From Pyrobaculum aerophilum str. IM2 (GTDB lineage Archaea > Thermoproteota > Thermoprotei > Thermoproteales > Thermoproteaceae), in contig NC_003364.1 of NCBI RefSeq assembly GCF_000007225.1, positions 1,327,480 to 1,359,479 of the forward strand: DNA of 32,000 nt, read 5' to 3'. Both the position numbers and the translations under genes were made by a program. This document shows, one piece after another, positions 1,075 to 27,632 of the stretch. Below the pieces are notes generated by a model. It did not search any database and was not told the DNA's origin. It saw nothing but the letters and a program-made list of their open reading frames with translations. Position 1 is the stretch's first letter. Each line of letters opens with the position of its first letter.

Positions 1075-3933
1075 GTGTACGCCTTCGTTGATCTGCCTTT
1101 TAGTCCCAGCGGCGTTACGCACTTAATACGCCGTCATAAGTCAGTGGGCTTCGAGAGAGAGTTGAAAGAGCTGTATGAGGTATTAAAAGCGGCCAGGGAG
1201 GGCAATAACAACGTATTGGCCGTCATAATAGCGCCGTATGGGTGGGGGAAGAGCGAGCTCTTAGACGAGTTAGAGGCGCTGGCCGAGAAGGAGGGGTTTG
1301 ACATATATAGAACGGCGCTATCCCTAGAGGGAGAGTTTACTATAGATATCGCGTTGAAAAAGCGGAATAAGCCTATGCTTGTGTTAATAGACGAAGCTGA
1401 TGAGCTCTCTCGCATTGTTGCAGTGCACAAACTGGGCGTGTTGGGCGATGAGAAATTTGTCAAAACAGTGCAAAAAGTCGCCACTTATATAAGAGCTTTG
1501 CTAGAGCCTAGATCTTATAAAAACATCCTGGGCGATCCCGAGAGATTTAATAAAATAGCTATAGTAGTGGCCCTAACGCCACAGTTGTATTATACTATTT
1601 TAAAAAATGTAGTACCAGATGTATTTGATATAACTAGTGGTAGAGTGTATAGAGAAATTATAATAGATACCAGATTTCCATTTTGGCAATTTGTCGAAGT
1701 TGTAAAACAGAGGCTGTTGGCCTATTCAGACACGGAGAGAGTTAGGGAGATAGAAAGAGGCAAGATAGACCTCCTCACTCCCTTTACATTATACGACTTG
1801 GCGGCAGTATACCACTTGGCTAAAAGGCGAGGCGAGGTGGCCCCCAGGCCTCTTCTAAAGCTCATGGCAAGGCTTTTCCAAATTAAGAAAGAAGGCGGCA
1901 GGCTGGCGCATTTACTAAGAGAGGAGGGGTTTAACCCAGACTTAGACGATGAAATTTTAGAAATAGTCTTCGCGGCTATACCAGTTGAACACAAAAAGCC
2001 ATATTTAAAAGAAGTATATCTATATAAAATACCATTTGAAGACAAGGAGGCATTAAACATAGCAAGGGAATATTTAGTAGTCAGGGGTAAAGAACTTGAC
2101 ATAAAAGATCCTAAAAACGTATCATATGAGCCGTATCTATACTATTCGCTTATAGAAGACGGCCGCCTTTTCGTCTACTTAATAGCGGAAGAGAATTTAG
2201 GCATCGAAAAGTACCTAGTTGGCAAGAGGTACGTAGTCGCTGAGGATGTGGCAAAGCTCGTTGGCTGGGAGGAGGCCCAATCCGTCGCCATAGTTGCGAA
2301 GGAGTTGAGCCAGAGGCTTGAGAGCCCAATAGCCCTGTTGGAAGAGGCAGAACGGGCGTTAGGCATAGAAGGCGTGAAGCTGAGGCGATGTTGCGGATAT
2401 GCCACATGGTCAAATAAAATGGGAGTGCGCGAAGCTTACCTCTTTCTCTACGTAGACCGGGAGGACGAGTTAAAGCGGGTTGTGGAAGAGCTGGCTGAAG
2501 TAGTGTCGCAAGGAGTTATAAATGGTTATGTCGTGGACTATTTAAACGTCCTCCTCGTAAGCCGGGTCTTGCTCACAGAGACTATTCAACAAGCCACATC
2601 GCCTTTAATGTCGGCGTATTGGAAACGCCTATTTCCAGATCCCGTCTCTAAGTTTACAACCCTTGAGATCTACGGCGCAGACAAGTATGAAAAACTGAAG
2701 CAACAGTTAATTAAATACGCAGTTGATAAGATCTTAAAGAGGGGGGAAAAGCCGCCTGAATTCGTAGACGCGGTGATGCTCGGGAGGGAAAGGGCGAGGG
2801 AGAATGTGCTCAAATACACACTAGCTTTGAAAAAAGGAAAGGAGAAAAAGGCTATAGCGCTTATCAAATTAGCTGAGGCCCTTGAAGAGGGGGGAGAGGT
2901 AGAGGGCCTTAAGGCCTACCGCGAGATAGAAGAAATATTACTAAACGCGTTTGAAGACTCTATTCACGAAAAGGAGTTTAAGTCATTAATAAACACGCTA
3001 TTCCCCGTTAACTTATGGAGGGAAATTAGAGAGGACGATGTAGTGGAGTTAATGAAGCTGAGAGGGCAAATAATCCCTATTGGCGACAGGCTTTACAAAT
3101 ATAGAGAGGATTTGGCAAAACGCTATATGTCAGAGGTCTTGCGCCAGTTAGAAGCCCTGAGAGAAGTGAAAGTAGAGAGGCAGACGCCGGCAGGCCCTAT
3201 AAAACTAGTAAGAGTATTAGACATTGGCGAGATAGAGGCCGCGTTCACGGACAAGAAAAGCTACGCAAAGGCTTTAAGAGAGGCGTTATTAAAGCTCCAG
3301 GTAATAAAGGAAAAATACAACGAAATAAAAACAGAGCTAGAGCGAGAGACAGAGGAGAAGGCGAGATTAATCAAAAGAATGTATTCTCTGCTGGAAAAGT
3401 TTCCCCAGAGGAGGAAATTCGTAAACCTCGAAAAATTAGATGAGGAGATTGTGAGGAGAGAAGAGGCCATTGCCCAAAAGACAGAAGAAGCCTTACATGT
3501 GTGGAGCGGAATTAAACACATGGCCAGCGCAGTTGGGTCGCGGCTAGACGTGGAGAGAGACTTGGCAGTATTATTAGAGTTGCCCGAGCCCTGGATAGCC
3601 GACTACGTGGCAGTGCTGAAAATTTACTCCTCAGAGCTCGAGAAAAAATACGCGCTATTCTTGGAGAAAGAAAAAGCGAAAAAAACCGCGTTAGAATGGC
3701 TGAAATCGAAATTCGGAGTAGAAAGCGAAGATATAGATACTGCGTTAACTACAGTGGCTACTAAGATTGGCGTGAATATAAAACTACTCGAGGCTGTTGC
3801 CAAGAGGGGGAAAGGAGCCGTTCTTGAAGTAGATCAGCTCGCCGTAGAGACCGGCCTCAAAAAAGAGGAGGTAGAGAGAGAGCTAGAAAGGCTTTACAAG
3901 GCTGGCGCAGTGGAGAAGAAATATGTCGCTTAA
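1075..3933 (+). CDS. Large uncharacterised P-loop NTPase (AAA_16/Arch_ATPase/ORC-like head) with a long helical/coiled-coil body and a C-terminal wHTH-like segment
   Basis: 952 aa. Walker A is APYGWGKS (aa 53-60), preceded by FERELKELYEVL as in archaeal STAND/ORC-like ATPases. Walker B is MLVLIDEADEL (aa 101-111). K/E/R-rich helical segments span roughly aa 560-860. The C-terminal tail EVDQLAVETGLKKEEVERELERLYKAGAVEKKYV looks like a winged helix. The start is GTG. Confidence 0.75.
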   Translation: MYAFVDLPFSPSGVTHLIRRHKSVGFERELKELYEVLKAAREGNNNVLAVIIAPYGWGKSELLDELEALAEKEGFDIYRTALSLEGEFTIDIALKKRNKPMLVLIDEADELSRIVAVHKLGVLGDEKFVKTVQKVATYIRALLEPRSYKNILGDPERFNKIAIVVALTPQLYYTILKNVVPDVFDITSGRVYREIIIDTRFPFWQFVEVVKQRLLAYSDTERVREIERGKIDLLTPFTLYDLAAVYHLAKRRGEVAPRPLLKLMARLFQIKKEGGRLAHLLREEGFNPDLDDEILEIVFAAIPVEHKKPYLKEVYLYKIPFEDKEALNIAREYLVVRGKELDIKDPKNVSYEPYLYYSLIEDGRLFVYLIAEENLGIEKYLVGKRYVVAEDVAKLVGWEEAQSVAIVAKELSQRLESPIALLEEAERALGIEGVKLRRCCGYATWSNKMGVREAYLFLYVDREDELKRVVEELAEVVSQGVINGYVVDYLNVLLVSRVLLTETIQQATSPLMSAYWKRLFPDPVSKFTTLEIYGADKYEKLKQQLIKYAVDKILKRGEKPPEFVDAVMLGRERARENVLKYTLALKKGKEKKAIALIKLAEALEEGGEVEGLKAYREIEEILLNAFEDSIHEKEFKSLINTLFPVNLWREIREDDVVELMKLRGQIIPIGDRLYKYREDLAKRYMSEVLRQLEALREVKVERQTPAGPIKLVRVLDIGEIEAAFTDKKSYAKALREALLKLQVIKEKYNEIKTELERETEEKARLIKRMYSLLEKFPQRRKFVNLEKLDEEIVRREEAIAQKTEEALHVWSGIKHMASAVGSRLDVERDLAVLLELPEPWIADYVAVLKIYSSELEKKYALFLEKEKAKKTALEWLKSKFGVESEDIDTALTTVATKIGVNIKLLEAVAKRGKGAVLEVDQLAVETGLKKEEVERELERLYKAGAVEKKYVA

Positions 3934-20637: not shown

Positions 20638-20808
20638 GTGGATATAATCATTGAGGAAGTCAGAAGGGCGTTTGGAAATACCGACGAGGGAAAAGTGGCA
20701 GAACGCCTTATTCTTGCATATAAGGAAGGCGGCGCCCGCGCCGCTAGGGCTGTAATTAGAGAATACCTTCAGAGACTGGGAGTAGATGTGGCGGATAGAG
20801 AGGATTGA
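20638..20808 (+). CDS. Unlisted 56-aa helical ORF in the arcadin-3 position
   Basis: My own translation from GTG 20638 gives VDIIIEEVRRAFGNTDEGKVAERLILAYKEGGARAARAVIREYLQRLGVDVADRED. It ends at TGA 20806-20808, 23 nt inside the arcadin-4 ORF. It is below the track length cut-off. Confidence 0.45.
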   Translation: MDIIIEEVRRAFGNTDEGKVAERLILAYKEGGARAARAVIREYLQRLGVDVADRED

Positions 20809-23170
20809 AGTCGAGAACTTCAGGTCGTACAGAGGGAGGCATATAGTAGCTTTAGGAGACGTGAATATTCTCCACGGGAGAATAGGGGCTGGGAAGACCT
20901 CGTTATTATACGCAGTGGAGTACGCGCTTTATGGGAGACAGCTTGAAGTTAAGGAGCGGGTGGCAAAACTTCAAGACTTGATAAACACGGAGTCGCAGGA
21001 AATGGGCGTTGTGTTGACGTTGCGAAATGGGGACAGAGTTCTGCGCATTGAAAGGCGCCTTGGGCGCCGCAGTAGCGAAAAAGTCGTTGTTAATATAGAC
21101 GGCGTTGAGCTCAGAGGCAAAGATGCCGAGGAAAAACTAGCGGAGCTTTTGGGGGCTGACGAGGACGTTTACGAGAGGCTTGTCTATATATCTCACCGGA
21201 CGCTAGAGGGCTTTATATATGGCACTTCGCAGAAAAGATCGCTGACTGTTGACCGCCTGTTTGGAATTGACGTAATTGACGGAGTAGTGAGGACTATTAG
21301 CGGCGTGGAGAAAGAGCTAATGGAAAAGGCCGAGGAATTGAGGAAGAGGCTGGCGGCGTATGAAAAACATAAAGACATAATTAGGCGCTACGGCGGTTTC
21401 GGCCAGCTGAAAGCGAGACTTGACTCTCTGGCCGGGGAGATTAACGCGTTAAAAGAGAGGGAAGAGCGTTTGGCTAAAGCCGCTGAGGAGTTGGCGAAGA
21501 AGAGGGCTAATTATCTGTCTAAATTACAGGAACAAGAGCCCCTCCTTTTAGAGTACTACAGAGTGAGGTCAGAGCTACAATTACTCGAGGAAGCCGGCGA
21601 GGGGAGCGGGGTGGACTTGTCTATTGTGGAGAGACTGAGAGACGCGCTGTTAGAGGCAGTGGAGGAATTTGAGCATTTCTTCGGGCAGGAACTCGCCGAG
21701 AGGCTTAGGAAAGCCGGGGACCTAGAGACGCTGTCTGTGGCTATGGCTGAGGCATATGACGCGCTTGTAAAACTTCAAAAAGAGCTGGAGGAGCAGGTCC
21801 ACGAGACGAAGAGACTGTATGAACACTATGAAACAAGGGCGAGGAAAATTGAAGTTGAGATAGGCGACGCCGAGGCTAAGTTGAAGAGACTTGAAAAGAC
21901 TTATCGACGCTTTAAGGATTTACAAAAGGCGTATCAATCTCTTGAAAACGCCAAGTTAACGCTTTCTCAACTTAAGAGAAAGTTGGAAGAGGCTGAGAGG
22001 TCGGCGGCATTTATATCGGCTCTAAAGACTGTGGCGTCTTATGCGGCAGAGGTGGGCATGGATAAATGCCCCATATGCGGCGCGCCGCTGAGGGGGGAGG
22101 AGCTCCGGCGCCTACAGGAGGAAATAGAGACAAGAGGCGGCTCTCTAATAAGAGAACTGGAGGAAATGAGGGAGAGGGTGAGAGAGGTAGAGAAGGCAGT
22201 GGAGGAGATGGAGGCGTTGAGCGGAGAGGTGGCGGAGTATCTCGCAGTGAAGACGCGTGTGGAGGAGTTAAAAATAGAGAGGGAGGAGGTCGTGAAAAAG
22301 GCAGTGCAAGCTGAAAAGTCGTTGAGACAGCTTGAGAAGAAACTGGAAAGACTGCGTACGCTGTTGGCCAAAGTAGATAAAAGGACTATCTCCGAGGCGT
22401 TGTCTAAATATGGAAGGGCGCTAAGAGTGCGAGAATTACGCAGGCGTTTAAAAGAGCTAGAGGAAGAGCTTAAAAAAGCGGGCGTTGTAACCGATGCGTT
22501 AAATGTAGACTTAAACTGGAGAGAAGTAGTAGAAGAACTGGAAAGGACCTCTTCACGCCTCGCCGAGGCGTATAAGGAGAAGTCGCTAATTGATGAGGTG
22601 ATAAGAGAAGTGGGCGAGGATTCCGAAGTCTTGAGGAAAAAGTTGGACAACGCGTTATATGCGTACAGTAAATTACAAGAGATCAAGGCAAAACTTGAAT
22701 TAGTTAGAATAAGCGCCAGGGCCAGGCTTTTAGAAGTTGCTAAAAGCCGATTTAATGAGATCTTCACCTCCCTGTATAAATACGGCGATATTGTAAGAGT
22801 AGATGCAGATTTAGAACAACGCAAAGGCTTTTATGACTTCTACGCCATAACTTCTACTGGCGACAAATACGGCATATCGAAACTAAGCGACGGCCAGAGG
22901 CTCTCCATCGCCTTGGCCTTGGCTCTAGCGCTGAGAGACATCGTCGAGATGAACATAGGCTTTATAATCTTCGACGAGCCAATTCCCTACGTAGACGCTA
23001 ATATAAGAAAGGCCTTCGCTGAGATTGTGAAATCAATTGCCGATAAGCTCCAATTGATAATAGCCACTCAATCTAGAGAGTTCGCGGAGCTAATTAAAAC
23101 TGCTGTGCCAAACGCCCTGCTGTTGGTAGTAGATAAAAAAGAGCATTCCAGTATCGTTGCCGAGCGTTAA
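20786..23170 (+). CDS. rkd-4: Arcadin-4-like Rad50/SMC-type ATPase
   Basis: 794 aa. Walker A GRIGAGKTS (aa 31-39). E/K/R-rich coiled coils. CPIC at codons 428-431 (nt 22067-22078) is exactly mid-protein, like a Rad50 zinc hook. ABC signature LSDGQRLS and Walker B FIIFDEP. Confidence 0.8.
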   Translation: MWRIERIEVENFRSYRGRHIVALGDVNILHGRIGAGKTSLLYAVEYALYGRQLEVKERVAKLQDLINTESQEMGVVLTLRNGDRVLRIERRLGRRSSEKVVVNIDGVELRGKDAEEKLAELLGADEDVYERLVYISHRTLEGFIYGTSQKRSLTVDRLFGIDVIDGVVRTISGVEKELMEKAEELRKRLAAYEKHKDIIRRYGGFGQLKARLDSLAGEINALKEREERLAKAAEELAKKRANYLSKLQEQEPLLLEYYRVRSELQLLEEAGEGSGVDLSIVERLRDALLEAVEEFEHFFGQELAERLRKAGDLETLSVAMAEAYDALVKLQKELEEQVHETKRLYEHYETRARKIEVEIGDAEAKLKRLEKTYRRFKDLQKAYQSLENAKLTLSQLKRKLEEAERSAAFISALKTVASYAAEVGMDKCPICGAPLRGEELRRLQEEIETRGGSLIRELEEMRERVREVEKAVEEMEALSGEVAEYLAVKTRVEELKIEREEVVKKAVQAEKSLRQLEKKLERLRTLLAKVDKRTISEALSKYGRALRVRELRRRLKELEEELKKAGVVTDALNVDLNWREVVEELERTSSRLAEAYKEKSLIDEVIREVGEDSEVLRKKLDNALYAYSKLQEIKAKLELVRISARARLLEVAKSRFNEIFTSLYKYGDIVRVDADLEQRKGFYDFYAITSTGDKYGISKLSDGQRLSIALALALALRDIVEMNIGFIIFDEPIPYVDANIRKAFAEIVKSIADKLQLIIATQSREFAELIKTAVPNALLLVVDKKEHSSIVAER

Positions 23171-23240: not shown

Positions 23241-23960
23241 CTATTTAGCCTTTTGCCACACGTTGTAAAAATATGTTATCGCTATTTCGAGTATAAATCT
23301 CTCGTTGGAGTAAACGCCGGAGATCTCACCGCCGTATTTTACAAATATCAATACTGAGTTGCCAATTGCCCCGCCTCCAAACATCTCATTTACCGTTTTA
23401 ATTTCCACACGTGGCGGCAAGTCGAACTTATTCCTAAGCTGATCAGTCGTTAAGACTTTTATCACAATTCGTTTAGACTCCTCGGCTATTGTCGCAAGTA
23501 GGCGATACGTAATTAGCTCTGGAAATGGCACTGCCAAATACGCCTCGTTGTCAGTAGCGGCGATTATGTCGCTTATTAAATCCGCCACTCGACCTGCCCC
23601 CCGAATTAGAGTGAGGAACGTAGGCGAAGCAACTGGATGCTTGCTTTCATATATTAACTGGAGGCTGTCGAAGATTGGCTTTAGAGATCTCAAGGCATTT
23701 GAAACCTTGTTAACCAACAATTTATAGACCTCGGCGGGGGGAACGGCTCTGTACTTTAAAGGCCTACTGCCGCCTTGCGGAATCACTAAGCCCATGTCTC
23801 TTAGCCTTTCAATATAAGCATATACTTTTGTATAGGGGATGTTTAACGCCTCAGCTAAGTCTCTTGCAGTGGATTCCCCCCTCTCCACTAGCGCTAAGTA
23901 AATATCGACTTCTCGAGCGCCAATTCCAAAGGCCTCAAGCAGTCTCCTGAGCTCTTCCAC
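23241..23960 (-). CDS. TrmB-family transcriptional regulator
   Basis: N-terminal wHTH LEAFGIGAREVDIYLALVERGESTARDLAEALNIPYTKVYAYIERLRDMGLV plus a C-terminal effector-type domain. The start is GTG. Confidence 0.8.
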   Translation of the reverse strand: MEELRRLLEAFGIGAREVDIYLALVERGESTARDLAEALNIPYTKVYAYIERLRDMGLVIPQGGSRPLKYRAVPPAEVYKLLVNKVSNALRSLKPIFDSLQLIYESKHPVASPTFLTLIRGAGRVADLISDIIAATDNEAYLAVPFPELITYRLLATIAEESKRIVIKVLTTDQLRNKFDLPPRVEIKTVNEMFGGGAIGNSVLIFVKYGGEISGVYSNERFILEIAITYFYNVWQKAK

Positions 23961-23978
23961 ACGTCTGCCTTAAGCGCA

Positions 23979-24023
23979 ATTTTTAACTTTTTTCTCAGAA
24001 TTTAGTTAAAAAGTTTAAAAATT
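23979..24023. promoter_or_regulatory. Back-to-back divergent TATA boxes (TrmB-like gene / large radical-SAM gene)
   Basis: ATTTTTAAC (23979-23987) reads GTTAAAAAT on the minus strand, about 23 nt from GTG 23960. AAAGTTTAAAAATT (24010-24023) lies about 25 nt from ATG 24041. The two form an imperfect inverted repeat TTTTTAAC/GTTAAAAA. Confidence 0.5.
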
Positions 24024-24040
24024 GATGTGACAACGGGTGC

Positions 24041-25783
24041 ATGAGCAAGCAAGTGGTAGAGCAAGTTATTGCCCGTGAGGAAAAGCCGCACTTGCTCGTC
24101 GATATATCGAGATTTAATTTGCCGGAGAGATATAAGTCAACGTTGTTAAATGAAAAGTGGCAGTCCACCCTTAAGAGGCAATTCGCCTTGCCCCAACACA
24201 CGAGAGTGGTGAAAGCCACTCTATCCCTGTGTCCAGTGTGTAACGCGAGAATACCTGCTGTGGTGTACGAAGAGGGAGGGGCTATTTGGCTGAAAAAGAG
24301 GTGTCCAGAGCATGGGGTGTTTGAAGATCTCTATTGGGGAGACGCCGAGATGTATTACTTCTTCCTCCAGTGGGATAGGCCTGAGTACATCGCAAAGGGC
24401 CTTGCCAACCCGTATACAGACTTGGAGTTTTACAAAGACATGGGCTCGTGTCCCGAGGGCTGCGGCCTATGCCCGGTTCACAAATCTAACACTGTGCTGG
24501 CCATTATAGATGTGACTAATAGGTGTAACATGGCGTGTCCCGTGTGTTTTGCCAACGCCGGCGCGGCGGGGTATGTCTATGAGCCGACGCTGGAGCAGAT
24601 AGAATACATGCTCAGGACTTTAAGGGCGCAGAAGCCCTGGCCGCCAAACGCCATTCAAATATCAGGCGGCGAGCCTACTTTGAGAGACGACTTGCCGGAA
24701 ATTGTGAGAATGGCTAAGAGGCTGGGCTTTACCCACGTTGAAGTTAACACAAACGGCATTAGGCTGGCCAACGACATTGAGTACTACAAAGCGCTACTTG
24801 ACGCCGGCATATCTACGCTTTATTTACAGTTCGATACGATAGACGAGAAGAATGAGGGAGTGTGGAGGCATAGGCTGTACCACCCCAAGGCGTATAGGAT
24901 AATAAAAGAAAAGGTGATTGAAAACGCGCGGAAGCTGGGTCACCGCTCTATTGTGCTGGTGGTCACTCTCGCCCGGAATTATAACGACAAGGACTTGGGC
25001 ACGATTATAGACTTCGCTATTCGTAATAGAGACGTGGTAAGATGGGTCAATATACAGCCGGTGAGCTTCTCAGGCAGGGCCAGGCTTTATTCAAAGGAAG
25101 AGTTGAGAAAATACCGCATTACAATTCCCGACACAATAATTGAAATAGAGAAGCAGACAGGAGGGGTGATAAGTAGATGGGACTGGCGGCCTACTAACTG
25201 GCCCGTAGCCGTGGCGAAAATGGTAGAGGCTCTAACGGATTCGCCAAAGCCGCTGTTCTCAATGAACCCCATGTGCGGCGCCGCGACGTTTATTTACTAC
25301 GACGAAGATGAGAAACGCATATACCCAATCACAAAACTAGTAGATGTAGACGCATTTGAAAAAGGCGCTTGGGATGTCTACTACACGGCTATAAAAGGAG
25401 GCATATACAAACAGACGGCAAAGGTAAAGGCCCTCAAGTTGTTAAAGGCAGTAAAGCATAAGAGGGTGAAAGACCTCATCTACGACTTCCTTGTCAAGAA
25501 AGACTACGAGTCGCTAGGCCGCTTCTTCTTTAACGTGGTCGGCATAGGGATAATGCACTTCATGGACACTATGAACTACGACGTAGAGAGAGTACAACGT
25601 TGCGACATCCACTACGCCACGCCAGACGGCCGCGTGTTCCCGTTCTGCACGTACAACGTAGTGGGCCACCGGGAGAAGGTGGAGAACTCGTTTAAAGTCG
25701 ACCCAAAAGTCTGGGTAAAAGTAACCGGCCTATCCCTAACTGGCTGGAGCAAACAGAAATTCGCCGAGCTGAACAAGTCTTAA
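24041..25783 (+). CDS. Large radical SAM protein with N-terminal Cys4 ribbon; candidate tetraether lipid synthase (Tes/GDGT-MAS, MJ0619-like family)
   Basis: 580 aa. N-terminal CPVCNARIPAVVYEEGGAIWLKKRCPEHG (rubredoxin/zinc-ribbon-like Cys/His set). Extra Cys cluster CPEGCGLCPVH. Radical SAM motif NRCNMACPVCFANAG and the ISGGEPTLR motif. The family assignment is from memory of the MJ0619-type architecture. Confidence 0.5.
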   Translation: MSKQVVEQVIAREEKPHLLVDISRFNLPERYKSTLLNEKWQSTLKRQFALPQHTRVVKATLSLCPVCNARIPAVVYEEGGAIWLKKRCPEHGVFEDLYWGDAEMYYFFLQWDRPEYIAKGLANPYTDLEFYKDMGSCPEGCGLCPVHKSNTVLAIIDVTNRCNMACPVCFANAGAAGYVYEPTLEQIEYMLRTLRAQKPWPPNAIQISGGEPTLRDDLPEIVRMAKRLGFTHVEVNTNGIRLANDIEYYKALLDAGISTLYLQFDTIDEKNEGVWRHRLYHPKAYRIIKEKVIENARKLGHRSIVLVVTLARNYNDKDLGTIIDFAIRNRDVVRWVNIQPVSFSGRARLYSKEELRKYRITIPDTIIEIEKQTGGVISRWDWRPTNWPVAVAKMVEALTDSPKPLFSMNPMCGAATFIYYDEDEKRIYPITKLVDVDAFEKGAWDVYYTAIKGGIYKQTAKVKALKLLKAVKHKRVKDLIYDFLVKKDYESLGRFFFNVVGIGIMHFMDTMNYDVERVQRCDIHYATPDGRVFPFCTYNVVGHREKVENSFKVDPKVWVKVTGLSLTGWSKQKFAELNKS

Positions 25784-25799: not shown

Positions 25800-27632
25800 T
25801 TACGCAAGTAATTTCCTCCCCAGCACAGCACCTATTCCCAGTATCGAAATTATTGCGGCTATTGATAATAGCGAAATATTATTGCGGCGAGGGGCCTCTT
25901 CGGCGAGTTTTATCGCCGGCAGTGTTATATTTTTCATGGCAATTGGCAACTCTACGACATACTGCAGTTCTACTCTTGATATGTTTACCACGGCGTAGTA
26001 CTTATTGAGTAAATCAATACGGGCCTCAGTCTCTTTTCTCCGTGCCTCAATCATTTGCGTGTAGTTTTCGGCCACAGAGCGCACGAGGCCTATTTTGGGC
26101 AACGTCTTTAGCTGGTCAAGTCTGTAGCGTTCAAGCTCTTCCGCCGATTTTAGGAGTTGCTCCCCTACGCCGTCTAAAATCTTAGTGGCGTTGTATATGG
26201 GGTTGATTAGTTTAAGCACATACCCGCCCGTGTTATAGAGATTTTGCGAAACGGCGAGTAAGTTTTTAGATGCGTTGAGGATAACGGCGGGCATTTCGCC
26301 TCTTAAAACAGTGGCATTCCCCCTGGCATAGCTGGCCGTTTTGTTTAATAAAGGAGCCAGCTCGTCGAAGCTGTTTTTAAGAGATTTTAGAGTTGAAACC
26401 GTGGAGTCAATAATGGAAATTGTGGAATCAACAGTTGATATGAGAGTGTCCACTGTGTCCCGCAAGGCGTATAATTGAGCTGAGACGGAGTCCAGTAGGC
26501 CTAGGGAGGTTTTAACAACGTCTTGGGCCAGGGAGCTGTTTAGGGCTATGTTGGAGAGCCGCCTCTTCGCCGCCTCTACCTCCGCTATTATTCTGCTGAG
26601 GGAGTCCCGGGCTTTTAACAAATTGCCCCTAATGGAGTACAACTGCGCCCTTGTGTTCTCAAGGCTTCTAACAGCGTCTGCCGACGCTTTGCTGTAAGAT
26701 GTCAGCGCCGCTGATTGGACCTCTAATAAATTAGCCGCAGTTATAAGAGCTACATACTGGTAGTCAACAAGAAGCCGGCTTTGGTTAAGCGTAATCGCCA
26801 CGCCCCGGGCGGCGTCTCCCAATGCCATTATCTGCCTCCTCAAGGCCTCAAGCGCGTAAACAGAGGCGTTGAGAGCAACAGCGCCTTGGCGCAACGCCGT
26901 GCCTGTTATGTTTAGAAGCTGAACTAGTCTCGTGAGGTTTTGCAACTGGCTGTACGCCACATCTGAGAAAACGGCGGCGGCCGTCGCGAGGCCTTTTATT
27001 TGATTTTCCACCGAATTGATATTTTCCACTTCTCTGCGCAATATAACAAGAGTGTCGTTAATATCAAGCGCCGTGGACGCCACAACAGCCGGCATTCTCA
27101 CGGCGCCGAAGCTCCCGAACTGTCTAATCTTAAAGGCTAAATAGAACTCGGTGTAGTTGTTAACCACAACGCTCCAGTAGTAAACAGTTGAGCCGGAGAT
27201 TTGGGAAATAGAAGTTGGTTGCTCCTCATATAAAACCGCTATTTTATCGTCAGCAGTTACTGTGATAATCACGGGAATTGATATGGGAAGTAATGCGTAC
27301 ATTTTCAGCCTTACGACAATAAGAGTGTTCTCATCGGCTTGGAGTACGCCATTGGAGTATGACCCGTTGACGTACTCCACTACTGGGTCTACCCTTAAAA
27401 ACGGCGGATATACGTTTTTCACGTCCCGTTCTATTATAACAGCTGAATATGGGGGAAGGACTAAGCCAGACTTATTAACTGCCAGCGGCGAGTTGTTTAC
27501 AACAACCCCTCTAATCTTTGCCGCGACGTCTATAGTGCCGTCTGGCTTGATGGAATAAGTCAGAACAAGGGACTCAGCAGCAGAGGCGATATACGCCAAT
27601 AATAACAAGAGCACAGCCAAGCCCAGCCTCAT
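25800..27632 (-). CDS. Secreted, C-terminally membrane-anchored, sequon-rich coiled-coil surface protein (last gene of the ABC operon)
   Basis: 610 aa. Signal peptide MRLGLAVLLLLLAYIASAAES. Beta-rich region of about 190 aa, then about 380 aa of Ala/Leu/Ser/Asn-rich helix. C-terminal TM LLSIAAIISILGIGAVLG followed by RKLLA. About 18 N-x-S/T sequons by my count. The start overlaps the ATPase gene by 4 nt. Confidence 0.7.
   Translation of the reverse strand: MRLGLAVLLLLLAYIASAAESLVLTYSIKPDGTIDVAAKIRGVVVNNSPLAVNKSGLVLPPYSAVIIERDVKNVYPPFLRVDPVVEYVNGSYSNGVLQADENTLIVVRLKMYALLPISIPVIITVTADDKIAVLYEEQPTSISQISGSTVYYWSVVVNNYTEFYLAFKIRQFGSFGAVRMPAVVASTALDINDTLVILRREVENINSVENQIKGLATAAAVFSDVAYSQLQNLTRLVQLLNITGTALRQGAVALNASVYALEALRRQIMALGDAARGVAITLNQSRLLVDYQYVALITAANLLEVQSAALTSYSKASADAVRSLENTRAQLYSIRGNLLKARDSLSRIIAEVEAAKRRLSNIALNSSLAQDVVKTSLGLLDSVSAQLYALRDTVDTLISTVDSTISIIDSTVSTLKSLKNSFDELAPLLNKTASYARGNATVLRGEMPAVILNASKNLLAVSQNLYNTGGYVLKLINPIYNATKILDGVGEQLLKSAEELERYRLDQLKTLPKIGLVRSVAENYTQMIEARRKETEARIDLLNKYYAVVNISRVELQYVVELPIAMKNITLPAIKLAEEAPRRNNISLLSIAAIISILGIGAVLGRKLLA

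Follow-up and report, generated by a model that had tools for sequence, protein, structure and literature searches.

The stretch of the Pyrobaculum aerophilum str. IM2 chromosome analyzed here (32,000 nucleotides, NC_003364.1 positions 1,327,480–1,359,479; hereafter the window, from whose first nucleotide all coordinates without a locus label are counted) contains a predicted tetraether lipid synthase gene, tes, arranged head-to-head with the gene for a short TrmB-family protein. The latter belongs to a distinct subfamily that is kept in this divergent arrangement with tes across several Thermoproteota classes. The best overall explanation of the locus, to which we assign a probability of roughly 0.7, is that it encodes Tes together with a dedicated TrmB-family regulator of the same locus. 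The enzyme itself offers nothing new, being an ordinary ortholog of a characterized family; the new part is its partner, a small protein from a branch of the TrmB family that is linked to a gene of membrane-lipid synthesis. The control that archaea exert over their content of membrane-spanning lipids is still an open problem, and one of practical consequence, because paleoclimate proxies based on glycerol dialkyl glycerol tetraethers (GDGTs) presuppose a physiology that has yet to be understood. The head-to-head regulator and a conserved, genome-unique promoter element provide a concrete target in the form of a candidate switch for tetraether lipid synthesis and, if this is correct, membrane-lipid synthesis would join sugar metabolism and chromatin among the fields in which the TrmB family acts. 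Full-text searches with the names of tetraether synthase together with TrmB or transcriptional regulator returned no paper on the tes-TrmB pairing or on a tes transcription factor, and Zeng et al. 2022 make no mention of a regulator.

The two open reading frames (ORFs) and the 80-nt spacer that separates them are present exactly as described in the original prediction, which had been made from the letters of the window alone. The regulator ORF occupies positions 23241–23960 on the minus strand and encodes 239 residues from a GTG start, and the tes ORF occupies 24041–25783 on the plus strand and encodes 580 residues from an ATG start. The divergent control region between them (23961–24040) has a conserved core and unconserved flanks in 11 Pyrobaculum species. 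Both start codons are backed by orthologs: Pyrobaculum and Thermoproteus share the N-terminal sequence MSKQ of Tes, and a GTG start stands at the same place in most Pyrobaculum regulator genes. The searches of the P. aerophilum genome reported below cover its single 2,222,430-bp contig.

The protein encoded on the minus strand is, as had been proposed, a member of the TrmB family. Its winged helix-turn-helix domain (wHTH; 23736–23939) matches PF01978 over residues 8–75 at 75.1 bits, as compared with a gathering threshold of 25.6. The AlphaFold model (19 orthologs, with a predicted local distance difference test score of 87.9) comprises this wHTH, a long helix formed by residues 75–107 (23640–23738), and an α/β domain of residues 117–237 that has a phospholipase D (PLD) fold (23250–23612). 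In a Foldseek search with the model, the closest structures are those of TrmBL2 (5BQT and 5BPD, E 1e-14); TrmB (3QPH) has an E value of 3e-9, and 2F5T and PLD-fold proteins are also matched. The C-terminal sugar-binding barrel is absent, the protein ending at residue 239, and from this domain layout and the Foldseek ranking we describe it as a short TrmB-family protein without the sugar-binding barrel. Its scores lie far below the cut-offs of the equivalog models for the sugar-sensing TrmB and TrmBL1 proteins (57 of 500 bits for NF047392, 35 of 650 for NF047390, and 23 of 600 for NF040851) and of that for TrmBL2 (NF041141, 22.1 bits with a cut-off of 530). The alignment of its orthologs, designated A1, has the conserved C-terminal motifs DSLQxxYES, PPRVEVR, MFGGGAIG, and AKTYFNxLW. 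When 1.84 billion proteins were searched with a profile of A1, 61 representatives had E ≤ 1e-30, and about 100 of the relatives were full-length, with 237–270 residues. The P. aerophilum protein falls within this subfamily, as it matches A1 over its full length, including the C-terminal motifs, and is encoded divergently from an adjacent tes.

In whole genomes, the divergent adjacency of the two genes is present in all three genera searched of the Thermoproteaceae, the family of the window (f1), in two genera (g6 and g7) of a sister family (f2), and in a family (f8) outside the order of the window. A scan of species representatives by means of the C-terminal motif yielded 38 loci, 37 of which have sequence upstream of the regulator gene, and in every one of these 37 tblastn places tes directly upstream of that gene and on the opposite strand. 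The loci span Pyrobaculum, Thermoproteus, Vulcanisaeta, other Thermoprotei, Bathyarchaeia, Ca. Methanosuratincola, and other Methanomethylicia, with sequence identities down to 24–27% for the regulator and 46–48% for Tes. Because the sample was selected by the motif, it establishes that motif-bearing members of the subfamily are linked to tes, not that every tes has the regulator beside it. The gene for arcadin-4 of the crenactin cluster (20786–23170) lies on the other side of the regulator gene in the window but flanks it only in the Thermoproteaceae and in a single genome besides. The partner that stays constant is therefore tes, and the idea that the regulator is a member of the crenactin/arcadin cluster was rejected. 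It is an accepted rule of comparative genomics, reportedly set out by Korbel and colleagues in 2004, that a conserved divergent pair of a transcription factor gene and a non-regulatory gene predicts regulation of the latter. The local transcriptional control envisaged in the original prediction has gained comparative support, in that the pair is kept across several Thermoproteota classes and the elements of the spacer are conserved and unique in the genome, whereas the agency of the TrmB-like protein is still something that we infer; on the evidence of these comparisons, it probably controls tes.

The same conservation bears on the nature of the protein. The regulator could be a chromatin protein like TrmBL2 that coats DNA non-specifically, in which case its place beside tes would carry no regulatory meaning. 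The best structural matches are indeed to TrmBL2, which has the same domain layout and a similar length, and the fact that the closest solved fold is that of a non-specific chromatin protein counts against a dedicated regulator. Sequence identity to TrmBL2 is only about 20%, however, and the score of 22 bits with the TrmBL2 equivalog model is remote from its cut-off of 530. An abundant architectural protein acting throughout the genome would also leave the strict conservation of the locus across classes unexplained, and the text of a chromatin proteomics study of P. calidifontis highlights a different protein, the Lrp/AsnC member Pcal_1183, as an abundant transcription factor-like chromosomal protein (PMC7325993). 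We regard a purely architectural role as very unlikely.

The pairing is not universal, and its exceptions weigh against a dedicated regulator of tes. The two genes are apart in one genus (g4), where the complete genome G023 has 72 kb between them. They occupy different contigs in families f7 and f10 and are separated by 2.6–9 kb in family f4 (genus g12). No ortholog of the regulator was found in genera g8 and g9, even with the A1 profile, and genus g5 has weak matches with E values of about 1e-11 to 1e-13. A metagenomic denominator was anchored on tes and consisted of the 80 most similar loci, 64 of which have at least 900 nt of upstream sequence. The regulator is present in 37 of the 64, always divergent and with its start 63–181 nt from the aligned start of tes, and is lacking in the remaining 27. 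The neighbors of tes in these 27 loci are varied and include genes for CarS, HxlR, ribosomal proteins, and others; a CDP-archaeol synthase (CarS) gene is divergent from tes in two of them (L099, 1892–2395; L113, 633–1148), and an HxlR-type regulator gene is divergent from tes in one (L083, 1903–2463). On account of this heterogeneity, the idea of alternative regulators in the loci that lack the TrmB-like protein was rejected. In several lineages the pair is broken although both genes are retained, as would be expected if the enzyme is indeed Tes but is not controlled by the TrmB-like protein. In that case, a shared compact bidirectional promoter would hold the two genes together, and the TrmB-like protein would control only its own gene or have its targets elsewhere. 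The adjacency nevertheless survives from Pyrobaculum to Methanosuratincola and Bathyarchaeia, where identity of the regulator has fallen to its lowest values and every other neighbor has changed.

Two arrangements around regulator orthologs in these families are recorded here as separate observations. At locus L068 (3818–7107; genome G055, family f7), the regulator gene lies on the same strand and 3 nt downstream of a gene for an 840-residue SMC-like relative of arcadin-4, an arrangement that echoes the arcadin-4 neighbor in the window. Locus L069 (genome G047, family f4) has a second ORF between the regulator ortholog and tes, at 2123–2467, that encodes 114 residues and consists of the TrmB-type wHTH only; the interval, which measures 2.6 kb, also holds GcvH/TusA and rhodanese genes.

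In the 11 Pyrobaculum spacers, the flanks next to the start codons drift, whereas a central block is kept that is composed of TTTTTAAC, about 17 nt containing TTTT...AA, and then GTTAAAAAGTTTAAA. The P. aerophilum spacer contains a perfect 9-bp inverted repeat. Its left arm, TTTTTAACT (23980–23988), is at the position of the regulator TATA box and is centered about 24 nt from the GTG, and its right arm, AGTTAAAAA (24004–24012), shows the highest conservation of any block in the genus and is at the position of the transcription factor B recognition element (BRE) of the tes promoter. An inner dyad, TTCTCAGAA (23992–24000), is a candidate operator core on the basis of comparison among lineages. 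The best TATA-like box for tes, TTTAAAAA (24014–24021, plus strand), is centered about 24 nt upstream of the ATG and is conserved in the genus. The mirror-image TATA boxes of the original prediction can be retained in part: the symmetry is real and its left arm coincides with the TATA position of the regulator gene, but its right arm is just upstream of the best tes TATA box and is not a TATA box itself. The spacing of the TATA boxes suggests that the mRNAs of both genes are leaderless or nearly so.

When the spacer was shuffled 2000 times, 16 of the shuffled sequences had an inverted repeat that reached this length, and across Pyrobaculum the repeat is rarer than expected by chance, being matched in 8–16 of 2000 shuffles. 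The arrangement TTTAAC-N17-GTTAAA occurs once in the 2.22-Mb genome, and a position weight matrix of the genus core scores 51.4 bits at the spacer and at most 17.9 bits anywhere else. A multi-gene lipid regulon in P. aerophilum was rejected, as neither the exact dyad nor the matrix located a second site. If this unique element is its operator, the regulator would be limited to one target locus. The most conserved blocks of the spacer, on the other hand, coincide with BRE and TATA positions and may therefore be conserved for the basal transcription machinery alone. This is a further point against control by the TrmB-like protein and one that agrees with a pair maintained by a shared bidirectional promoter, although a TrmB-like protein that acted on distant genes might be expected to have its target marked by a second copy of the element, and the genome contains none.

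Spacers of other lineages contain elements of related design. The core TTCT(C/G)AGA is common to P. aerophilum, Vulcanisaeta, genus g7, and loci L040 and L041, and the place of the inner dyad is taken in other lineages by related TTCT(C/G)AGA, TTCAC, or TGAA elements. In Thermoproteus, TTAAC-N8-GTTAA abuts a palindromic TATA box, and in Vulcanisaeta and g7 the element ATACT-N16-AGTAT or ATACT-N6-AGTAT overlaps the start codon of the regulator gene. Locus L040 has the 10-bp repeat CATTTAATAC-N17-GTATTAAATG, which was matched by 4 of 2000 shuffles, and Methanosuratincola has TCATACG-N6-CGTATGA overlapping ATTCA-N5-TGAAT. The Bathyarchaeia-like metagenomic loci share a fixed architecture, WTCACC-N3-TGAAA-N3-TTTGGAAAC-TATA. 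In terms of half-sites, the Thermoproteaceae are characterized by TTAAC-N8 or N17-GTTAA, Vulcanisaeta, L040, and Methanosuratincola by ATAC...GTAT, and the Bathyarchaeia-like loci by TTTCA-N5-TGAAA together with TGGAAAC, and such differences indicate a conserved architecture rather than a consensus operator. A single universal palindrome was rejected because the half-sites and spacings differ among lineages and several of the repeats, taken alone, are not above chance.

Some of these comparisons also count against the proposed control. The inverted repeats in Vulcanisaeta and g7, which are only 5 bp long, are not above chance, and locus L038 has none; the lack of significance in several clades is compatible with the view that the TrmB-like protein is a bystander of the tes promoter. 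The TCACC box is present in 43 of 73 spacers that have the regulator, as compared with 3 of 27 regions upstream of tes without it, but the sequences are related and are not independent samples, so that the contrast is not phylogenetically independent. The most telling evidence, in the other direction, is provided by the complete genome G023, in which a move of the regulator gene has left it 72 kb from tes (L065, about 3820–3900; L064, 3502–4275). In this genome tes now follows the gene for a GH15 glycoside hydrolase but, despite the move of the regulator gene, has retained the Vulcanisaeta-type element ACACTTCTCAGAGTAT...AAAGCTTATTAA upstream. For this reason the element is to be assigned to the tes promoter, and it could be read in trans. 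Its retention by tes, together with the survival of the pair at low sequence identity, is difficult to reconcile with two genes that merely share a promoter, and we consider that explanation unlikely.

For control of tes by the regulator, the preferred explanation, the following mechanism may be envisaged. A dimer of the regulator, formed through the long helix, would bind to the dyads of the spacer, namely the inverted repeat TTTTTAACT-N15-AGTTAAAAA, the inner TTCTCAGAA, or both. The dyads overlap the TATA box of the regulator gene and the BRE, or upstream edge, of the tes promoter, and binding would consequently autoregulate the regulator and tune tes. In the TrmB family, the position of the binding site relative to the BRE and TATA box decides between activation and repression. 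The regulator would act as a dedicated setter of tes transcription at a single locus. The tes gene of another crenarchaeon, S. islandicus, is responsive at the transcriptional level, being up-regulated under cold stress (PMC10465181). A more ambitious and rather improbable proposal is that the tes-linked subfamily represents a dedicated transcription factor for archaeal lipid homeostasis, in which the PLD-fold domain would bind a metabolite of the pathway and the dyad would adjust Tes so as to set the ratio of diether to tetraether lipids. The ligand in such a scheme may be an archaeol-type phospholipid, a head-group intermediate, or a by-product of the radical S-adenosylmethionine (SAM) reaction, and the feedback circuit may have been kept from the Thermoproteales through to the Bathyarchaeia and Methanomethylicia.

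The gene on the plus strand is almost certainly the only tetraether lipid synthase gene (Tes/GDGT-MAS) of the genome, as judged by homology, and the assignment of its product to the MJ0619 type in the original prediction is well founded. The protein matches the NCBIfam equivalog hidden Markov model (HMM) NF045702 (rSAM_GDGT_ether) at 651.4 bits, with a cut-off of 450, over profile positions 2–484 of 486. Among proteins of known structure, its best match is the GDGT-MAS MJ0619 (7TOL/7TOM; E 2.5e-139, residues 50–561), a full-length match to the structure, and the runner-up is MoaA at 3e-8. No other subfamily gives a better score: the TrsS model NF045646 reaches 339 bits, under its cut-off of 490, and the remaining radical-SAM models are below 75 bits. 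A search of the genome for paralogs with NF045702 gave one match above the cut-off and no competing ortholog, the second-best radical-SAM protein scoring 68.6 bits, and a Tes above the cut-off is present in each of the 39 Thermoproteales genomes searched. The annotation is already known and is not new, because RefSeq names close orthologs as Tes; a mate in its 90% cluster is entered as "tetraether lipid synthase Tes [Pyrobaculum neutrophilum]."

The metal ligands were mapped by alignment to the PDB sequence and with the numbering of Lloyd et al. 2022 (PMC9433317), and the Cys motifs named in the original prediction are all present. The HMM and PDB alignments begin at residues 50–60, and they are preceded by an N-terminal extension of about 55 residues (24041–24205) with the motif LVDxSRFxLP, which is the consensus in the Tes alignment (A2). 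This extension is conserved in the Tes proteins of Thermoproteales, lies outside the family HMM, and is absent from MJ0619 and from the Tes proteins of Methanosuratincola and Bathyarchaeia; tblastn alignments with the P. aerophilum query accordingly start at residue 1 in the Thermoproteaceae and at about residue 55 in distant lineages. The rubredoxin-like zinc-ribbon domain that follows (24209–24337; PF23545, 74 bits) has the sequence C64-x2-C67...C88-x2-H91, and its four residues align with Cys9, Cys12, Cys33, and His36 of the rubredoxin-like iron site of MJ0619. The site of the N-terminal auxiliary [4Fe-4S] cluster, CPEGCGLCPVH (24449–24481), is formed by C137-x3-C141-x2-C144-x2-H147, in which the three Cys residues correspond to Cys73, Cys77, and Cys80 of MJ0619 and His147 to its conserved His. 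The radical-SAM core (24512–25018; PF04055, 90.9 bits, residues 158–326) contains CNMACPVC, with C162-x3-C166-x2-C169 aligned to the CX3CX2C motif of MJ0619. Within the domain of the auxiliary cluster at the C-terminus (25274–25648), identified from the alignment with MJ0619, residues Cys412, Cys521, and Cys536 are the predicted cluster ligands. The register of the alignment is confirmed by the correspondence of Met505 and Tyr525 with the labile Met439 and the strictly conserved Tyr459 of MJ0619. These five residues are invariant in A2, and each of the 12 Cys residues of the protein falls on a position of the four metal sites as a predicted ligand.

By analogy with MJ0619, Pyrobaculum Tes would contain three [4Fe-4S] clusters in addition to a rubredoxin-like iron site and would use radical-SAM chemistry to link two saturated phytanyl chains of archaeol-type phospholipids through their terminal carbons, which would yield the biphytanyl chains of membrane-spanning GDGT. 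Two published observations weigh against this extrapolation. Formation of the biphytanyl C–C bond has been demonstrated only for MJ0619, Maeo_0574, and MA_1486, none of which is crenarchaeal (PMC9433317, PMC8941075), and M. maripaludis expressing Saci_0703 formed no GDGT (PMC8941075). The radical-SAM protein might instead catalyze some other reaction, either the pterin methylation formerly attributed to MJ0619 or a function of the TrsS family. In favor of this view, the Pfam zinc ribbon is still named after the old HMPTM assignment, the TrsS model also matches, and the demonstrated cases of tetraether synthesis all lie outside the crenarchaea. The TrsS score, however, is under its own cut-off, whereas the Tes score is well over its own, so that identity with the TrsS family was rejected. 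Every metal ligand and the counterpart of Tyr459 are conserved in the protein, which is the sole Tes-type product of the genome, and Pyrobaculum produces GDGT lipids. The old methanopterin-related assignment of the MJ0619 family as a pterin methylase was not reproducible, is contradicted by the structure, and has been withdrawn on structural grounds (PMC9433317). A different reaction is, on balance, exceedingly unlikely.

Several tes sequences in the comparison set are interrupted. In the complete genome of Pyrobaculum sp. WP30 (CP012158; L030, about 2698–2702), tes is frameshifted near residue 410, just before the Cys residues of the C-terminal cluster; the gene is either broken or affected by a sequencing error. 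Several frameshifts are also present in both tes and the regulator gene of the JCM Vulcanisaeta drafts (L043, L047, L048, and L053), and these look like assembly errors. On the other side of tes in the window, a gene for a 610-residue surface protein (25800–27632, minus strand) is convergent with it. The protein has no match in Pfam; it has counterparts in the same place in other Pyrobaculum (50–55% identity) and a weak one in one Thermoproteus locus (L032, 29% identity).

The closest known systems to the two proteins of the locus are the characterized tetraether synthases and the other branches of the TrmB family. The GDGT-MAS/Tes proteins (MJ0619, 7TOL/7TOM; Maeo_0574; MA_1486; Saci_0703) have the same order of domains as the Pyrobaculum enzyme, with the ribbon followed by the N-terminal auxiliary cluster, the radical-SAM core, and the auxiliary cluster of the C-terminus. 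All of the metal ligands of MJ0619, as well as Met439 and Tyr459, are kept in Pyrobaculum Tes, which differs in the additional N-terminus of about 55 residues and in the replacement of Cys456, the second Cys of an RCC sequence, by Asp522. With the bacterial regulators FapR, FadR, and DesT, the TrmB-like protein would have in common the proposed logic alone, that of a dedicated transcription factor that tunes membrane-lipid synthesis and possibly senses an intermediate; the folds are unrelated and the proteins are from another domain of life, so that the likeness is an analogy only.

Within its own family, the regulator most closely resembles TrmBL2 of the Thermococcales (TK0471; 5BQT, 5BPD, and 5BOX), which has the same size and the same layout of wHTH, long helix, and PLD-fold domain, with no sugar barrel. 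The two are distinguished by their low sequence identity and by the conserved C-terminal motifs that the regulator subfamily has of its own, and, whereas TrmBL2 is an abundant non-specific chromatin protein, the subfamily described here is tied to one locus. The TrmB-type wHTH (PF01978) is also common to TrmB and TrmBL1, including P. furiosus TrmB (3QPH/2F5T) and Hbt. salinarum TrmB. TrmB proteins bind to dyad-symmetric promoter sites, as in the case of the palindrome TACT-N7-8-GAGTA bound by the Halobacterium protein (PMC2710871), and the candidate sites of the regulator are likewise dyad-symmetric. In contrast to TrmB and TrmBL1, the regulator lacks the C-terminal sugar-binding subdomain, has a lipid-synthesis gene as its conserved partner instead of genes of sugar transport or glycolysis, and seems to be confined to one target locus.

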